Shown piece after piece: positions 3,314-58,779 of a stretch of 64,000 nucleotides of DNA; the first letter of the stretch is position 1, and each line of letters starts with the position of its first letter. Origin of the DNA: Armatimonadota bacterium. Lineage in GTDB: Bacteria; Vulcanimicrobiota; JACPDS01; JBDRKI01. Under the pieces are notes generated by a model. That model had not been told where the DNA came from, made no database searches, and was given only the letters and a program-made list of their open reading frames with translations. The stretch lies in NCBI GenBank assembly GCA_043814095.1, contig JBDRKI010000023.1, positions 277 through 64,276 of the forward strand, written 5' to 3'. The position numbers were made by a program, and so were the translations under genes.

Positions 3314-3594
<281 letters not shown>

Positions 3595-3597
3595 AGC

Positions 3598-3626
3598 ATA
3601 AAAATCCCGTTTTACGGGATTTTTTT
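3598..3626. terminator. Bidirectional intrinsic terminator between the tRNA and the macro-domain gene
   Basis: AAAAATCCCGTtttACGGGATTTTTTT. Confidence 0.6.
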
Positions 3627-37625: not shown

Positions 37626-37900
37626 GGCCGGCATGGGCGCTTGCTTGCCGGTGAAAGTCCGATACGGAGGTTGATAGCGCCAACAGTTAGCCAAAGACAA
37701 GGGTGTCCGTTGTGAGGCGGAATTTCAAGGAAGTCGGAGGCAAAGCTTCGGTCTGAGGAACACGAACCGCATAAAAGGCATAGCTCTGCGGGCGAGTTTG
37801 CACAACAAAACGAAGCCCCAAACTATCCGAAGCAGGCAGTGTAAATGCGGCAGATATATGAAGCGAAAGTAAGGGCTAACAAAGGAAGTCACGGTATAGA
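37626..37900 (+). mobile_element. GC-rich structured RNA segment resembling group II intron domain I (internal fragment)
   Basis: GTGAAAGTCCGATACGGAGG and AAAGACAAGGGTGTCCGTTGTGAGG parallel the Ll.LtrB domain I blocks GAAAGCUGAUACGGGAAC and AAAGACAAUCGGGUACGACUGAG in the same order. No GUGYG 5' end was found. Confidence 0.4.
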
Positions 37901-38109
37901 CGGGCGGTATTTGAATCCTTTCATCTTCATAATTGTTATTTTCTATATATATCAAGGAATTCCTCTGTTTGCCGGCTTTTCTAAACAGGGTAATACAACT
38001 TTTGCTGTATTTTGCTCAGAAACATAAAATCAAAGTTCTAAATTGGCTTGACACTTAGCAATTCTAATATTGACATTTATTCCATAATAGAGTAATCTAT
38101 TATGGAGAT

Positions 38110-39387
38110 ATGATTAAAGAAAGAAAAATATTCGCCAAATTGCTGAAAGAAGCTTCCGTGCCGAAAGTGTCTATAATTTTGGGCTCGAGGCAGGTGGGAA
38201 AAACCACCGCTTTGGAATACGTGTTTGAAACCATCTGCGGGAAAGGAAAGCATAAGGGCATATTTTTAGATTTAGATATTTATTCTAACTTTGAAAAAAT
38301 TTCTTCCTACGAAAATGCCGTTAATACTTTTAAATTGGCGGGGTATAACCCTGAAAGCAGGGAAAGGTTCTATGTTTTTCTTGATGAGTTTCAGAGGTAT
38401 AAAGATTTAACGGTCATAATAAAAAATATATATGATCATCATAAAAACATAAAAATATATGCTACCGGTTCTTCTTCCATAACGATAAAATGCAATGTTC
38501 AGGAGAGTTTGTCGGGAAGAAAAATAATTACATATTTATTTCCCTTGAATTTTGAGGAATTCCTTATTTTTAAAAATAAAAAAGACTTACTGGCGGCGCT
38601 TAAAAATGTTTCATCGCTTAGAGGGGAAGACCTTTTCGCCCCCTCCAAAGAACTTTTTGAAAATTTGGAAGAATTTATAAGGTTTGGGGCATACCCCGAA
38701 GTGGTATTGGCGGGGAATAAAAAAGACAAGACGGAAATTTTGAGGAGCATTTTTGATTTATATGTAAAAAAAGAGCTGGTGGAATATTTAAAAATAGAAA
38801 AAATATACGAAACCAAACGGCTGATTCAATATCTCGCGGTAAATAATGCGCAAAAAATCAAATATCAGAATATTTCACAGTTTGTGGGTTTTTCCCAAAA
38901 AACGGTTAAGCATTATATAGAAATCATAAAAGAAACCTTTTTGCTTGTCGAAATAAAGCCGTTTTTCGCGAATAAAAACAAAGAATTGGTAAAAATACCA
39001 AAAATATATTTTGTAGACACGGGTGTTGCGAATTTCTTTACCAATAATTTTAATAAATTGGAATTAAGAAACGATTCGCCGTTTTTATTTGAAAACTTTG
39101 TTTTATCCGAATTTCTAAAAAACGGTTTCATCGAGGACAATATTAAATTTTGGCAGGATAAAAATAAAAACGAAGTGGATTTTATATTGGAAAAGAGCTC
39201 AAAGGTCACGGCAGTGGAAGTTAAATTTAAGAAAAATCTTAAGGCCTCGGATTTTTCTTCGCTTAATTTGTTTAAGAAGGACTACCCCGGCACGGACTGT
39301 GTTTTGATTAACCTGTCTTCGCAGAAAAAACACAAAAACATAAAAACGATGCTGCCGTATAAAGCGGCATATGCGGCAGAGATATAG
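38110..39387 (+). CDS. AAA_14 ATPase with C-terminal DUF4143
   Basis: GSRQVGKTT Walker A near the N-terminus; architecture typical of the widespread AAA+DUF4143 'ATPase' family. Confidence 0.75.
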   Translation: MIKERKIFAKLLKEASVPKVSIILGSRQVGKTTALEYVFETICGKGKHKGIFLDLDIYSNFEKISSYENAVNTFKLAGYNPESRERFYVFLDEFQRYKDLTVIIKNIYDHHKNIKIYATGSSSITIKCNVQESLSGRKIITYLFPLNFEEFLIFKNKKDLLAALKNVSSLRGEDLFAPSKELFENLEEFIRFGAYPEVVLAGNKKDKTEILRSIFDLYVKKELVEYLKIEKIYETKRLIQYLAVNNAQKIKYQNISQFVGFSQKTVKHYIEIIKETFLLVEIKPFFANKNKELVKIPKIYFVDTGVANFFTNNFNKLELRNDSPFLFENFVLSEFLKNGFIEDNIKFWQDKNKNEVDFILEKSSKVTAVEVKFKKNLKASDFSSLNLFKKDYPGTDCVLINLSSQKKHKNIKTMLPYKAAYAAEI

Positions 39388-39572: not shown

Positions 39573-40090
39573 TTAATCCATATATTTTAAAAACTTTTTT
39601 AATAAATCTCGCTCTATTTTTTCAATTGCCTCTACAGAAACCGCATCCATTAAATTCCAAAAATGCCGGCTATCAATTTTATTCAAACTACACCTGAGCA
39701 AATATTCGCAAGAAGTTGTTTTTACCCAGCTCCACCATCCATTCTTGCTCGTTGGCATGCAGGCTCGTCCCATGTCTGCAAGCAAAAGAGTAATCCCGGC
39801 TGTTAAATTATTTCTAACCGGCTTTTCGGCCGTGTAAGATCTGGATGACTTAATATATTGATTAATCGTTAAGGGAACTTCTAATTTATCAGCCACATTA
39901 AGCAATGCGGCCACGGCGCCATAGGTATATGATTTTAAGCGCAATCCATCGGTAAGCCCCCGCATGCGCCTTAATAAATCTTCAGCCTTGCCAAGATAAG
40001 CAAGGACAATAGGCCTTGGCTTGCTCTGGATTCCACTATGTACCAGTATCTGTGTCCTCTTGAATTCTTGGGTTGGATTGTAGCCATATT
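39573..40090 (-). pseudogene. IS1634-family (IS4-superfamily) transposase N-terminal fragment, frameshifted and truncated
   Basis: MATIQPKNSRGHRYWYIVESRASQG...GKAEDLLRRMRG matches the IS1634 Tnp N-terminal pattern. Frame switch near 39975; ORF ends after ~170 aa. Confidence 0.55.
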
Positions 40091-40260
40091 CAGCACTTCC
40101 TCAGTGTATACGTAAATTTTGAAAACAAAAAAACCGCAACCTTGGTTGTTGTAATAAATTGCGGCTCAAACTTTTATCGGAAAATTAATTTCGTAATAAA
40201 CTCACGCTAGGTTTCCTCTCAATCCTAGAAAGATACTCACTAACTCTTAATTCTTGTTGA

Positions 40261-40326
40261 ACCGCCGTATGCCGAACGGCTTGTACGGTGGTGTGAGAGG
40301 ACGGGGGCTAACCGCCTCCTCCTACT
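40261..40326 (+). mobile_element. Group II intron domain V (40261-40292) plus putative domain VI; 3' end remnant
   Basis: ACCGCCGTATGCCGAACGGCTTGTACGGTGGT fits the DV consensus (CCGUAU...GNRA-like...ACGUACGG) with a two-stem architecture; the downstream hairpin GAGGAcgggggcuaaccgccUCCUC follows. Confidence 0.5.
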
Positions 40327-40338
40327 CGATTTATTTAT

Positions 40339-53576: not shown

Positions 53577-54014
53577 TCAGGCTACGCTTGCGGCAGTCCG
53601 CTGCGTTAGCGCCCGAAGGTTCTGCCCGAACCTAAGAATATTTATTGCGGCATTTAAGTCTCTGTCTAATTCTATTCCGCAGAAAGAACAATGATGCACG
53701 CGCACTGACAAGTCCTTGGATACATTCTTTCCGCAATTTGAGCATTTTTGACTTGTACCATGAGGATTTACTTTAATTACTATTCTACCAGCCTCTTCCG
53801 CTTTATAGCATAGCAAATTAAAAAACATACCCCATGAGCAATCAGCAATAGACTTACTCAAATGCCTGTTTCTAACCATACCTTTGATATTCAGATTTTC
53901 TATAGCAAGAATTTCCACATCAATTTCTTTGGCTTTTTCTTCCACAATCTGTCTTAATCTGTTTTTAACTTTGCCGGTTAAAACAGGCTTTCTCCTTTTA
54001 GGACACCATATCAA
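53577..54014 (-). pseudogene. tnpB: IS200/IS605-family tnpB C-terminal fragment (RuvC-III plus zinc finger only)
   Basis: CSNCG...CSFCG zinc ribbon and the TnpB C-terminal pattern; only 145 aa remain. An imperfect palindrome CTCCTGAAT-AA-ATTCAaGGAG lies at 53540-53570, just past the fragment's 3' end. Confidence 0.65.
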
Positions 54015-54202
54015 ATGATAGTTGAGAAGATAGATATGGTGGCCGAGCCTGTTTGTATTTCATGTTGACATTATATCATATATCAACGAATTAATCTATC
54101 GAATAGAAAAACAAGGGAGCCATTCATCCCCTGTTTAAAAACAGAAGCTTTCTGGCTAGTATTTTGTAAAAAGCTCACCTCTCGGCGGCAGATGAGGTTA
54201 TC

Positions 54203-54547
54203 TTATTTTTCCAGATCCATTAATATTTTTTCGAAAATAGATTTTAATCGCGGGATTTCTTTTTTGATTGTTTCCCATACAATGTTTAATTTAACCCCAA
54301 AATATTCATGAATAAGCTTGTCTCTCATGCCTGTCATATCTTTCCATGGTACTTCGGGATATTTTTTCTTTATATCTTCTGGAATTTTTTTTACAGCTTC
54401 ACCTATAATCTCAAGTGCTCTTACGGCGGCAAATGAAGTTTTATCATCTTTTGCAAACTGTTCGTCGGTCATGCCCTCGGTAAAATTTACTGCATTATCA
54501 ATGGCATTGATAATATCCTCAATATAATCCCCTACTTCTCTTTTCAT
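54203..54547 (-). CDS. hepT: HEPN toxin HepT (DUF86)
   Basis: R-x4-HxY motif (RDKLIHEY). Confidence 0.75.
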   Translation of the reverse strand: MKREVGDYIEDIINAIDNAVNFTEGMTDEQFAKDDKTSFAAVRALEIIGEAVKKIPEDIKKKYPEVPWKDMTGMRDKLIHEYFGVKLNIVWETIKKEIPRLKSIFEKILMDLEK

Positions 54548-54843
54548 AACGGCACAACCTCATTTAATATATGTCTGCCTATTCTTGGCTTTAATGATGA
54601 TTTTTCCACAAGATCAACTTTTACACCCAAAAGTTCGCTTAAATAATTTTCCATATTTACAAATTTTAAAAGTCCTATTAAAGCATTCTTTTCAAATTCC
54701 ACAAGTATGTCCAAATCGCTTTTTATATTGTTTTCCCCTCTTAAATATGAGCCAAAAATACCGATTTCTTTTATGCCGTACTTTTTTTTCAATTTTTCCT
54801 TATGATTGTTCAATATCCGTTTTATTTCGTCCAGAGTTTTCAT
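54544..54843 (-). CDS. mntA: Nucleotidyltransferase antitoxin MntA
   Basis: GSYLRGENNIKSDLDILV NTase motif; 4-nt overlap with hepT. Confidence 0.75.
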   Translation of the reverse strand: MKTLDEIKRILNNHKEKLKKKYGIKEIGIFGSYLRGENNIKSDLDILVEFEKNALIGLLKFVNMENYLSELLGVKVDLVEKSSLKPRIGRHILNEVVPL

Positions 54844-55284: not shown

Positions 55285-55833
55285 ATGCGCGGACCTGATT
55301 TAACAAACTTAAGATCAACATTAAACAGAATAAACCAGATCCAGAGCATGTTTGACGCGGAAAAAAGCACCCAGTCAAATGATGTTTCATTTGACGCTAT
55401 GCTCCAGGGCGCATTAAACAAAAGCACGGGTGGAAGCTTCGCGGCGAACCAGCTGCTTAATAATCTGTCATATATAAACCACTTAAATAACCAGACCCTT
55501 GTAGACTTATCGGATCCCAAGAAAATGATTAAATACAAAAATTATGAGATGCAGGCAAAAACAGCAGCAAGATTCCAGAAGCTTGAATACCTTGTATCAA
55601 AACATTTCCCAGGAAAAGAAGTTATAATAACTTCAACAACTGACGGTATGCATCTTGATCAGAATCACTACACCGGCGAAGCTGTTGACTTTGTGGTTGA
55701 CGGCATAACAAGAGAAGAATCAAGACAGCTTGAGGAATTATGCAGACAAGCCGGTTTTAAGCCGTACAACGAATACCTGTACGGTTCAAGATACAAGCCG
55801 GGCGATCATATGCATATAGATTATGTAGATTAA
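55285..55833 (+). CDS. FlgJ-like rod-binding N-terminal region fused to a LAS/peptidase-M15-type zinc peptidase motif (putative cell-wall hydrolase)
   Basis: SFDAMLQ motif (Rod_binding-like); H-x5-H-x2-G-x-A-x-D (HLDQNHYTGEAVD) and HxH (HMH) zinc-ligand pattern of M15/VanY-type peptidases. Confidence 0.5.
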   Translation: MRGPDLTNLRSTLNRINQIQSMFDAEKSTQSNDVSFDAMLQGALNKSTGGSFAANQLLNNLSYINHLNNQTLVDLSDPKKMIKYKNYEMQAKTAARFQKLEYLVSKHFPGKEVIITSTTDGMHLDQNHYTGEAVDFVVDGITREESRQLEELCRQAGFKPYNEYLYGSRYKPGDHMHIDYVD

Positions 55834-55860
55834 GAAAAACAAATATATTTAAAAATTAAA

Positions 55861-55896
55861 AAAAGACTGTTCGTTTTGAACAGTCTTTTTTTTTTA
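55861..55896 (+). terminator. Strong intrinsic terminator (9-bp stem, 9-T run)
   Basis: AGACTGTTCgttttGAACAGTCT followed by TTTTTTTTT. Confidence 0.8.
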
Positions 55897-55898
55897 CA

Positions 55899-56268
55899 GT
55901 GCGCCCGGCAGGGCGCAATTACCTGAAGGTGAGAGTCCTTTTCAGGCCAGATGCGGGGAACTGCTAGTTAAACGTCAAGGGTGTCCACAGACAAAGCGCT
56001 GGCCTGACGAACAGAAATCACAAAATAGGCGTACATGCTGGATGAGAAGGCTGTTATCTTTAAAGTCCGATACCCATACGAAAAGCATGTGCGTAGATGT
56101 GGCGGGCATAAGCGTGAAGGTGATTGCGCATTACCTGGGGAGGTCCATGAATTTGCCGTAGTGCTATTGCCGTCGAGAGACGGCGAGATGAGTTCAGAGA
56201 AGTCAGCAGAGGTCATAGTAGGTTGTTCGACCGCAACCGAAGGACTAAATTCATCACGGCTTACCTCC
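55899..56268 (+). mobile_element. Group II intron 5' fragment (class-C-like): GTGCG start immediately after a terminator; ~370 nt GC-rich, no ORF, no domain V
   Basis: GTGCGCCCGGCAGGGCGCAA resembles the Ll.LtrB 5' end GUGCGCCCAGAUAGGGUG. It shares 11-12-nt blocks with 37626-37900. Bacterial class C introns target sites just 3' of intrinsic terminators. Confidence 0.5.
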
Positions 56269-56343
56269 TTTCTTTTTGTTTTATTTAATGGCTTTTTATG
56301 CCTTTAAATCTTGATTGAGGGAAGTCTCTTTCTCCCTTCCCAC

Positions 56344-56356
56344 CTATATTATACCC
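56344..56356. repeat. Homopolymeric C13 tract
   Basis: Read directly; lies in an AT-rich intergenic region. Confidence 0.9.
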
Positions 56357-56481
56357 CCCCCCCCCCGCGTATACGGATATAGGTCAAAGGGAGTATTTTT
56401 GCGCATAAAAAGATAATTTTTGAGTGATTTTGCTAAATGACTTTACAAGCGGATGAAACGACAAAAAACAGCTATTTTACA

Positions 56482-58779
56482 TTACGCCAGAGTAACCCTG
56501 TTTTTGCCTTCATGCTTTGACTTATATGTTGAAAGATCAGCTTTGAAAATAAGGTCTACTTTTGAAGAGGCATCATCCGGATATGTTGAGACACCTATGC
56601 TGCCGGTAATCTGTACCGGGTATTTATTAACATGCTGGAAAAAGCCTTCCCTTATCCTTTCGGCGATCATAGCGGCTTCTTCCTTGCTCTGACCCACAAG
56701 CACAAGCGAAAATTCATCCCCGCCGTAACGGCAGACAAAATCGCTCTCCCTTGTATAGGTTCTTAACATGACGGCTATCTCAGAAAGAACCTTATCCCCT
56801 GCGGGGTGGCCCAGCGTATCATTAAACTGTTTAAAGTGATCTAAATCAATAAATATTAAAGATACCGGCTTATTATATCTCTGTGACCATTTAAGCGATT
56901 CCTCAAGGCGCTCCTGGAAATACCTGTGGGTATAAAGGCCGGTAATGCCGTCGGTAATCGCTAATGCGGCGATCTTTTCATAAAATTCCGCGTTCTGTAT
57001 GGCCATTGCCGCCTGATATGCAACCGATACAACCAAACCCAGCTGGTCGCCGTTAAATGAATACGGAAGCGTGGCCCCGAAATAAACCGCCCCTATAATC
57101 TGATTCTCAACAATTAAAGGAGCCGCTATTATAGACTGCTCTTCTTCGGTCAGATTTTCAAGAATAGATTCTTTCGCGTCTTCAAGCAGCAGTACTTTTC
57201 TGTTTGTATAAATCCAGCCGAGCAGACCTTTTTTGGGATCTAATTTTGTATCTTTAAAATAATCTTCATGCGGAGATATTATATGTTCGGGGACAAACTT
57301 TGCTTGATCTGCTTCGCCTTCAAGCTTAAATATAACGCAGGTCTGGTAATTAAGCATGCTTTTTGTCGCGTCACCTATAATCTTTAAGGTTTCCTTAAGA
57401 TGTAATGTCGTGCCCAGCGTTTTACCGAAATCCGATATCATTGATATTTCCTTAACTTTGATATCCAGCTGTTCATTTATTCTCTGCTGGACTTTAAGGG
57501 CTTCTTCCTGGGCTTCAAATAAAAGCGCTGATTTAATAGCGATAGCCGAAGCTGTCGCAAGATTTGAAACGGATTCCAAATGCTCTGTTGTAAAACTGTT
57601 GGGATTTTTAGCTCCTATGTAAATCACGCCTATAAGCTTGTTCTGGATTATAAGGGGGATGCCCATTATGGATGCTTCGTCTTTAAATATCCTATGTTCT
57701 GAAGAGGTATCCATGTTGCCAACCAGAACCGGTTTGTTTTTATCCGCTACAACTTCCACGACTTTCTCTTCAAGCTTCAAAAGATTGGAAGCCTCAAGCA
57801 CCTCTTTATAGGGAGTGGAATATTTATATGGGATGAGCTCCTTTTCTTTATTATACAAATATATAACACAGCTCTGGCAGAATATGAGCCTTCTTATCAT
57901 ATATATAACATTATTAAGAACGCTTTCCAAGGTGAGGTTGGCGCCCAGAACGTGGCCCAGTTCAAAGAAAATAGAGAGTTCATCTATTTTCTTCTGCAGG
58001 GTATTATCAAGACTTATATTTGATTCTTTTATCTTATGAAGCTCTGCCTCAAGATAGTTCATTCTTCCCTCAGCCGCTTCCTGACTCTTAACCTCGGCCA
58101 CATGAACCGATATCCCCTGCATATACCTTACCGCCAACAGCACGGGTATAATAAACGCGGTAAAATAGGGTCCCTTCATATAAAGCATTGTTGTGGCTAC
58201 AGCCAGGGGAATAACGGCTATGCTTACAAAACCTGCTTTGTTTTTGGCTAAGTTCCAGATCTTCTGCTTGTCGGGAAAATACATTCCTATAAAAATAGCG
58301 GGAAGAAGATAATCCATCAGCATATACACAACGGCTATCACAATAAGTGAAATTATATTGCCTAAAGACAGAAACGCGGCGCTTGCGTTAGTTATATAAT
58401 AAATCGTGCCGGTAAAAATAATTATTAAAAAAGTGTCGGAAAAATCAGCCAGCCTGAACCACGAATTAGAATAATTAACTATTAATGCCCTGAACACCGA
58501 ATTAATAAGCACGGCAAGGATGGCCATCTGCGGCCCGAATACAATTAGTACCGTAAAATAAATTACAAAAGCCGGATTAATGCTCCCGAAAAAACCTACG
58601 CGGAATGAAGTAATTTCAAAGGCCAGGGCTATGATAAGTAAAAAAATAAACGATCCCAGCCCGCTTGACGGCGGAGATACGGAACCCAGTATTTTATAAA
58701 AAAGCAATACCCCGAGAATAAGGGCGATAAGAAACTTGATTATTATAAATTTTTTCGCGCCGCCGGAAATTTCTTCCAT
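56482..58779 (-). CDS. Multi-TM GAF-GAF-GGDEF diguanylate cyclase
   Basis: RYGGDEF active site and two GAF-like regions; 8-10 N-terminal TM helices. Confidence 0.8.
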   Translation of the reverse strand: MEEISGGAKKFIIIKFLIALILGVLLFYKILGSVSPPSSGLGSFIFLLIIALAFEITSFRVGFFGSINPAFVIYFTVLIVFGPQMAILAVLINSVFRALIVNYSNSWFRLADFSDTFLIIIFTGTIYYITNASAAFLSLGNIISLIVIAVVYMLMDYLLPAIFIGMYFPDKQKIWNLAKNKAGFVSIAVIPLAVATTMLYMKGPYFTAFIIPVLLAVRYMQGISVHVAEVKSQEAAEGRMNYLEAELHKIKESNISLDNTLQKKIDELSIFFELGHVLGANLTLESVLNNVIYMIRRLIFCQSCVIYLYNKEKELIPYKYSTPYKEVLEASNLLKLEEKVVEVVADKNKPVLVGNMDTSSEHRIFKDEASIMGIPLIIQNKLIGVIYIGAKNPNSFTTEHLESVSNLATASAIAIKSALLFEAQEEALKVQQRINEQLDIKVKEISMISDFGKTLGTTLHLKETLKIIGDATKSMLNYQTCVIFKLEGEADQAKFVPEHIISPHEDYFKDTKLDPKKGLLGWIYTNRKVLLLEDAKESILENLTEEEQSIIAAPLIVENQIIGAVYFGATLPYSFNGDQLGLVVSVAYQAAMAIQNAEFYEKIAALAITDGITGLYTHRYFQERLEESLKWSQRYNKPVSLIFIDLDHFKQFNDTLGHPAGDKVLSEIAVMLRTYTRESDFVCRYGGDEFSLVLVGQSKEEAAMIAERIREGFFQHVNKYPVQITGSIGVSTYPDDASSKVDLIFKADLSTYKSKHEGKNRVTLA

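Follow-up and report, generated by a model that had tools for sequence, protein, structure and literature searches.

The locus described here lies between two convergent genes in a 64,000-nt window, the whole stretch of DNA that was analysed, from an Armatimonadota bacterium. The upstream gene (55285–55833, plus strand) encodes a hypothetical protein of 182 aa, which is 100% identical to a protein from an NCBI metagenome-assembled genome (MAG) of an Armatimonadota bacterium (locus tag ABIH00_01735) and has no Pfam match above the curated cut-off. The downstream gene (56482–58779, minus strand) encodes a GAF-GGDEF protein; both genes were taken from the list of open reading frames. The 648-nt spacer between them contains a bidirectional intrinsic terminator (55858–55895), which ends the 182-aa gene and is the target of the intron, a group IIC intron remnant on the plus strand (55899–56250; hereafter stump B), and an AT-rich tail that extends from the remnant to the stop codon of the GAF-GGDEF gene. 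The neighbourhood upstream of stump B is rich in mobile-element debris. There, the minus strand (53577–54843) carries a truncated TnpB-like ORF of the IS200/IS605 OrfB type (53577–54014) and an apparent HEPN(DUF86)/nucleotidyltransferase toxin-antitoxin pair (54203–54547 and 54544–54843), all recognised from their translations only.

The terminator is built on a core stem of 8 bp, in which GACTGTTC (55865–55872) pairs with GAACAGTC (55878–55885) across a GTTTT loop, and which can be extended to 15 bp with A-T pairs. Because A7 flanks the hairpin on the left and T10 (55886–55895) on the right, it can serve both strands, and its minus-strand reading was detected by the terminator scan. The predicted fold (−17.6 kcal/mol, z = −6.2) was equalled by none of 200 shuffled sequences. 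ACA (55896–55898) lies directly 3´ of the T10 run and is followed by GTGCG from position 55899, which places the start of stump B 13 nt past the core stem and 3 nt past the T-run. A first-pass annotation of the window had already put a group II 5´ end 3 nt beyond a strong terminator, and both points hold, although its figures of a 9-bp stem and T9 give way to the 8-bp core and T10.

The Rfam scan identifies the element that starts at this position. RF02001 matches 55957–56129 (92.1 bits, E = 2.8e-17) and RF01998 matches 56164–56245 (70.6 bits, E = 1.2e-10), both far above the respective gathering scores of 32 and 35. These strong matches of domain I models agree with the same annotation's reading of the element as the 5´ part of a group II intron. 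Together with the alignments, they delineate a GUGCG 5´ end that conforms to the GUGYG of group II introns, an internally deleted domain I, domains II and III, and no more than a few bases of domain IV, which is the group II architecture from domain I to domain III. The recognisable intron sequence spans approximately 347–352 nt at 51% GC. The "about 370 nt" of GC-rich structured RNA reported previously is thus intron sequence, but its length was overestimated.

The corresponding locus in relatives carries no such element. Orthologues of the 182-aa protein are found on contigs L001, L002, L003 and L006, where they lie approximately 120 nt from a convergent GAF-GGDEF gene, compared with 648 nt in the window, and these shorter spacers hold one bidirectional terminator hairpin and nothing else. 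The gene order past the spacer is also kept, with the GGDEF gene followed by a gene for a 398/410-aa protein. Because gene order is conserved on both sides, the locus is not a chimeric join of unrelated regions. The orthologous loci probably represent the empty site of stump B, as seen in distant relatives whose proteins share 58–60% identity with that of the window. The terminator scan called no other minus-strand terminator between 56482 and 55892, and the GAF-GGDEF transcript would now cross approximately 590 nt, including the stump in antisense, before it reaches the shared terminator.

Target site and intron family

Insertion just downstream of an intrinsic terminator stem-loop is the defining behaviour of IIC introns (PMC1702495, PMC4424553), in which the terminator hairpin takes the position of IBS2 (PMC1702495). 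Stump B occupies such a site, immediately 3´ of the stem-loop. To locate EBS1, the three bases 5´ of the conserved UAUC motif in a domain I loop were taken and compared with the last three bases of the 5´ exon. In stump B, EBS1 is UGU (56052–56054) and IBS1 is ACA (55896–55898), and all three bases pair, a short interaction of the 3–4 bp that characterises class C. EBS1 and IBS1 are complementary in 52 of 63 non-redundant family copies, compared with a mean of 20% and a maximum of 41% for shuffled pairings. Most family copies have U-rich exon ends, which makes the UGU/ACA pair of stump B unusual but matched. Because this pair matches and the EBS1-IBS1 position covaries across the family, the 5´ junction at 55898|55899 appears to have been made by reverse splicing of the intron itself.

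The family was sampled through more than 230 relatives fetched from genomes and metagenomes. The pattern GTGCGCCCGGCA-N10-30-GGTGAGAGTCC retrieved 7 viral loci and at least 119 genome loci from many phyla, and a second pattern retrieved at least 120 metagenome contigs. In 118 of 121 distinct upstream flanks, the sequence folds into a strong hairpin (−8 kcal/mol or better) whose end lies a few bases 5´ of the intron, and in most a T-run comes next. In line with the class-C behaviour proposed for the element, the data support the assignment of stump B to an IIC-type family whose members follow intrinsic terminators. The family samples provide a clean illustration of known IIC biology, both in terminator targeting and in EBS1-IBS1 covariation.

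Full-length introns related to stump B are present in other genomes. They measure approximately 1.88 kb and contain an ORF of 420–467 aa that begins 40–60 nt past domain III. One of these proteins, from relative L079, was compared with Pfam; it contains RVT_1 and GIIM and lacks an endonuclease domain. Domain V (D5) of the full-length relatives reads GAACCGCCG...CGGUGGUGUG and includes ACCGCCG, that is, a CGC triad, and domain VI (D6) ends with CUACYCGAU. The ACCGCCG motif occurs in D5 of all aligned full-length relatives and of a second decayed intron in the window (copy A, described below); other group II classes have AGC at the base of D5, whereas IIC introns have CGC (PMC1702495). The best genomic relatives are 70–75% identical to stump B over its whole length (Desulforhabdus, Rhodothermales, Armatimonadia and locus L129), and the best metagenomic relatives reach 74–81%. 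No close parent was found among the genome and metagenome pattern matches, and a 30-mer from domain III that is specific to stump B had no match in the metagenome contigs.

Losses in stump B and a second decayed copy

The homology of stump B to every full-length relative stops at its nucleotides 345–351 (56243–56249), at the boundary of domains III and IV, beyond which no more than a few diverged bases of the junction between these domains remain. Neither tblastn with five intron-encoded proteins of the family nor the list of open reading frames revealed a remnant of such a protein near stump B. A separate scan of 56200–57000 yielded no RF00029 match and no other Rfam match that could represent domain V or VI. 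The whole-window Rfam scan, at E values up to 5, likewise reported no domain V, though it also missed a genuine D5-D6 at 40257–40330 through filter loss. Since whole-window Rfam scans can miss IIC domains V-VI in this way, the absence of domain V has to be called from an unfiltered search, and a family-specific covariance model was built for this reason. This model (R1), made from 21 family D5-D6 sequences and run over the 64 kb with filters off, has its sole match at 40257–40330 (80.6 bits, E = 3e-18), which belongs to copy A, and the next best score is 9.6 bits. When up to 3 mismatches were allowed, a pattern search for the IIC D5 matched at position 40260 alone. Stump B is hence devoid of domains V and VI and of the RT/maturase gene that group II introns carry in domain IV. 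The first-pass annotation had recorded a truncated element with no ORF for an intron-encoded protein and no domain V, and each of these searches points the same way.

That annotation did not include a further loss within domain I. Alignment with 10 relatives and copy A reveals a 27-nt deletion private to stump B, with its junction at 55987–55988. Lost with it are a small hairpin and the AAUCUGAAGGAAG bulge with the epsilon-prime AGGAA motif. All 10 aligned relatives have this bulge, as do copy A and the RF02001 consensus; AGGAA has no occurrence in stump B. Epsilon-prime is an IIC-specific bulge of 11 nt with a conserved AGGAA (PMC1702495). The idea that the deletion is a variant that has propagated was discarded, as the shortened spacing occurs in 0 of 90 metagenome relatives. 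Because the catalytic centre and a conserved tertiary-contact motif are both gone, stump B is predicted to be inert, able neither to splice nor to move.

The second copy lies upstream on the same strand. Copy A comprises a domain I remnant at 37626–37877, supported by an RF02001 match of 145 bits and by the alignments, and the only D5-D6 of the window at 40257–40330, recognised by model R1 and by RF00029 (41.3 bits, seen only in the scan of a 251-nt slice). It has neither a GUGYG 5´ end nor an upstream terminator. Its domain I and its intact-looking D5-D6 bracket 2.4 kb of foreign DNA, with a gene for an AAA_14/DUF4143 ATPase (38110–39387, assigned by Pfam) and a transposase-like remnant (39573–40090, minus strand). 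The suspicion that this second region is intron-related was correct, but the region is more than the 5´ piece it had been taken for, given the D5-D6 2.4 kb downstream. Two short sequence blocks had also been noted as common to both copies. Both blocks exist; CAAGGGTGTCC is positionally homologous between stump B and copy A, whereas AAAGTCCGATAC occupies a different part of domain I in each copy and does not align between them. The translation of the plus strand at 37866–37901, KVRANKGSHGID, is similar to the RT-0 motif (ANKGxAGID) found in the intron-encoded proteins of the family. Four separate protein queries match this 12-codon stretch weakly (tblastn, E 1.4–3), and it may be the last trace of the protein gene of copy A. 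Copy A and the transposase-like remnant share the window with the TnpB-like remnant mentioned above. Together, stump B and copy A point to a past colonisation of this Armatimonadota lineage by IIC introns that target terminators.

The coexistence of domains I-III in stump B and D5-D6 in copy A raises the question of whether stump B is still functional, either as the 5´ half of a split trans-splicing intron that would use a D5-D6 such as 40257–40330, or as a domesticated structured RNA in the 3´ UTR region of the flanking genes. Organelles are known to contain split group II introns (PMC4424553), the D5-D6 is located 15.5 kb upstream on the same strand, and apart from the deletion, domains I-III of stump B are well preserved in the covariance-model alignments. 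The D5-D6 at 40257, however, belongs to a decayed copy with a domain I of its own and without a 5´ splice site, and the epsilon-prime AGGAA motif of stump B is deleted. Moreover, the fold of stump B is only marginally better than those of shuffled sequences (z = −2.3), there is no orthologous conservation, the site is empty in the relatives, and no identical or near-identical copy was found in the metagenomes. A functional stump in either form is extremely unlikely.

Stump B resembles the IIC introns B.h.I1 of Bacillus halodurans and O.i.I1 of Oceanobacillus iheyensis in its GUGCG start, in its compact domains I-III and in its matches to the same Rfam models. It shares with them a position a few bases past a terminator hairpin and T-run and an EBS1-IBS1 pairing of only 3 bp (PMC1702495), and its relatives share the CGC triad in D5 and the endonuclease-less RT/maturase. 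Unlike these introns, stump B has no ORF in domain IV, no domain V, no domain VI and no epsilon-prime AGGAA bulge. It is a descendant of an IIC intron such as B.h.I1 or O.i.I1, not a working member of the group.

AT-rich tail and C13 tract

The tail occupies about 56246–56481 (approximately 236 nt). Its GC content is 38%, as in the host, compared with 51% in stump B. No similarity to the tail was found in the window or in the approximately 240 fetched loci, including the domain IV of ORF-less members of the family, and Rfam gave no match. Nothing in the orthologous loci can be aligned to it; their spacers are much shorter, with a distance of approximately 60 nt from the terminator to the GGDEF stop codon.

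Within the tail lies a C13 homopolymer (56354–56366, plus strand), which on the minus strand reads as G13 with TATAAT immediately after it. No other G/C homopolymer in the 64-kb window, whose GC content is 41%, reaches a length of 8. The tract had been placed about 75 bp downstream of the intron; it is present as reported, but at approximately 105–110 nt past the end of intron homology. It lies between the imperfect inverted repeats CCTATATTATAC and GTATACGGATATAGG (flanks 56343–56383), whose fold is no better than those of shuffles (z = −1.4). No link between the C13 tract and the intron could be demonstrated. The intron accounts for neither the tail nor the C13 tract, and the tract, to which we could assign no function, could be hypervariable or a sequencing artefact.

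The minus strand of the tail reads TTGACC-N28-TATAAT, where the N28 includes the G13 run, and the scan called no sigma-70-type promoter on that strand in this region. Approximately 70 nt past the TATAAT, AGGAGG-N6-GTGATG is followed by only about 14 codons. The tract might be a slippage-prone contingency tract that switches an antisense promoter on and off, with TATAAT abutting it and TTGACC 28 nt upstream; we regard this as highly improbable. If it were true, the antisense promoter would fire through the Shine-Dalgarno and GTG-ATG remnant and the stump in antisense into the shared terminator, and the GAF-GGDEF signalling gene would have a small regulatory unit, made up of the relic and its tail, beside it. 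We also considered that AGGAGG-N6-GTGATG might mark a gene removed by the 3´ deletion of stump B. The relatives have no gene at the orthologous spot, and the remaining ORF has about 14 codons. The tail may be native spacer, what a deleted gene left behind, or of another origin. A likeness of ACCTCCTTTCT to the 3´ end of 16S rRNA was dismissed, since it is too short to mean anything.

The singular C13 tract also bears on whether the truncation is biological at all. The window comes from a metagenome-assembled genome, repeats typically break assemblies, and two-colour sequencing chemistry is known to produce spurious poly-G runs, so a multi-copy repeat could have been mis-joined or collapsed here, possibly with an added poly-G/poly-C artefact. 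A collapsed repeat would, however, retain the 3´ end of the intron, and stump B has no D5-D6. The 27-nt deletion and the divergence of 19–30% from all relatives mark it as an old unique copy, for which a clean assembly is expected. In addition, the sequence runs on normally on either side of the C-tract, and the genes on both sides (182-aa, GAF-GGDEF, 398/410-aa) are ordered as in the orthologous contigs. It is very unlikely that the truncation and the C13 tract both arose in assembly or sequencing.

Origin of the truncation and related elements

Stump B preserves, in decayed form, the front third of a class C group II intron; it is an ordinary relic of a familiar type, not a new system. Its history is very probably that of an inserted IIC intron that has since decayed by deletion to an inert stump, which is the best explanation of the locus. 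An intact class C intron would have reverse-spliced just past the terminator common to the 182-aa and GAF-GGDEF genes, using its 3-nt EBS1 (UGU) on the exon end ACA. Everything 3´ of domain III, that is, most or all of domain IV, the RT/maturase gene, and domains V and VI, would have been lost later. A further deletion of 27 nt in domain I would have taken the epsilon-prime AGGAA bulge, leaving an inert relic of approximately 350 nt. The order of these events and the loss by later deletion are what we infer from the parts that remain.

Abortive target-primed reverse transcription usually leaves 5´-truncated copies, not 3´-truncated ones. Stump B, in contrast to such copies, keeps its 5´ part. 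Because it is truncated at the 3´ end, its origin requires an additional step, either a deletion or an unusual priming. The alternative to later deletion is a copy that was truncated at birth: after full reverse splicing, cDNA synthesis would have been primed inside domain IV, only domains I-III would have been copied, and the tail would be the native 3´ exon. Such an internal start is conceivable, as IIC introns, which have no endonuclease domain, rely on primers at the replication fork (PMC4424553). No remnant of the intron 3´ end exists downstream, and the host-like composition of the tail suits a native exon, yet the tail is four times as long as the native spacer in the relatives. The family samples contain a noticeable proportion of 3´-truncated copies, with approximately 15 other 3´-truncated or internally deleted copies among those with enough flank. 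Their end points, however, are scattered from 39 to 1218 nt without a common junction feature, which random deletion explains equally well, and we found no experimental precedent in the literature consulted for copies born in this manner. For the same reason, a preferred truncation point at the boundary of domains III and IV was rejected: the ends of the other stumps vary in position, and no homopolymer or other junction feature recurs among them. Truncation at birth is unlikely; later deletion remains the preferred reading. An allele from a close relative in which ...TTTTTTTTTTACA is directly followed by part of the tail would fix the end point of the 3´ deletion.

Most bacterial group II intron copies are truncated or inactivated (PMC4424553), and stump B resembles these in being non-functional, partial and intergenic. 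It offers little novelty, and its value lies mainly in annotation, where the appropriate label for these approximately 350 nt of GC-rich, structured intergenic sequence is "group IIC intron remnant, non-functional", not riboswitch or small RNA.

The metagenome contigs also contain ORF-less mini-introns of the same IIC family (L134, L145, L148, L168, L206, L208, L212 and L214). They are approximately 700 nt long, with domains I-III joined to D5-D6 through a domain IV of approximately 240 nt, and make up about a tenth of the metagenome sample; a 2015 review called ORF-less bacterial group II introns rare (PMC4424553). Stump B is similar to the mini-introns in having the same ribozyme 5´ part and no protein gene. 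The mini-introns, however, retain D5-D6, and a protein acting in trans could splice or mobilise them, whereas stump B has lost D5-D6.

In three further family members, L021, L046 and L072 (Bacillus massiliglaciei, Candidatus Dehalobacter alkaniphilus), what looks like the D5-D6 end of one intron copy lies just upstream of another copy. The preceding copy of L072 finishes with ...CCUACUCGAU and directly abuts the next GUGCG, whereas Ns lie between the two copies in L021 and L046. This arrangement suggests tandem head-to-tail IIC copies.

A different type of intron is present elsewhere in the window. At 3315–3602 (plus strand), a group I intron interrupts the anticodon loop of an initiator-type tRNA gene, with CGCGGGGTGGAGCAGCGGTAGCTCGTCGGGCTC as the 5´ half and ATAACCCGGAGGTCGGAGGTTCGAATCCTCTCCCCGCAACCA as the 3´ half of the tRNA. 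ARAGORN did not call this split tRNA at 3315–3602, and the intron matches RF00028 at 3327–3533 with 67.6 bits. Intron-bearing tRNA-fMet genes are known from cyanobacteria; the split gene described here is carried by an Armatimonadota MAG.
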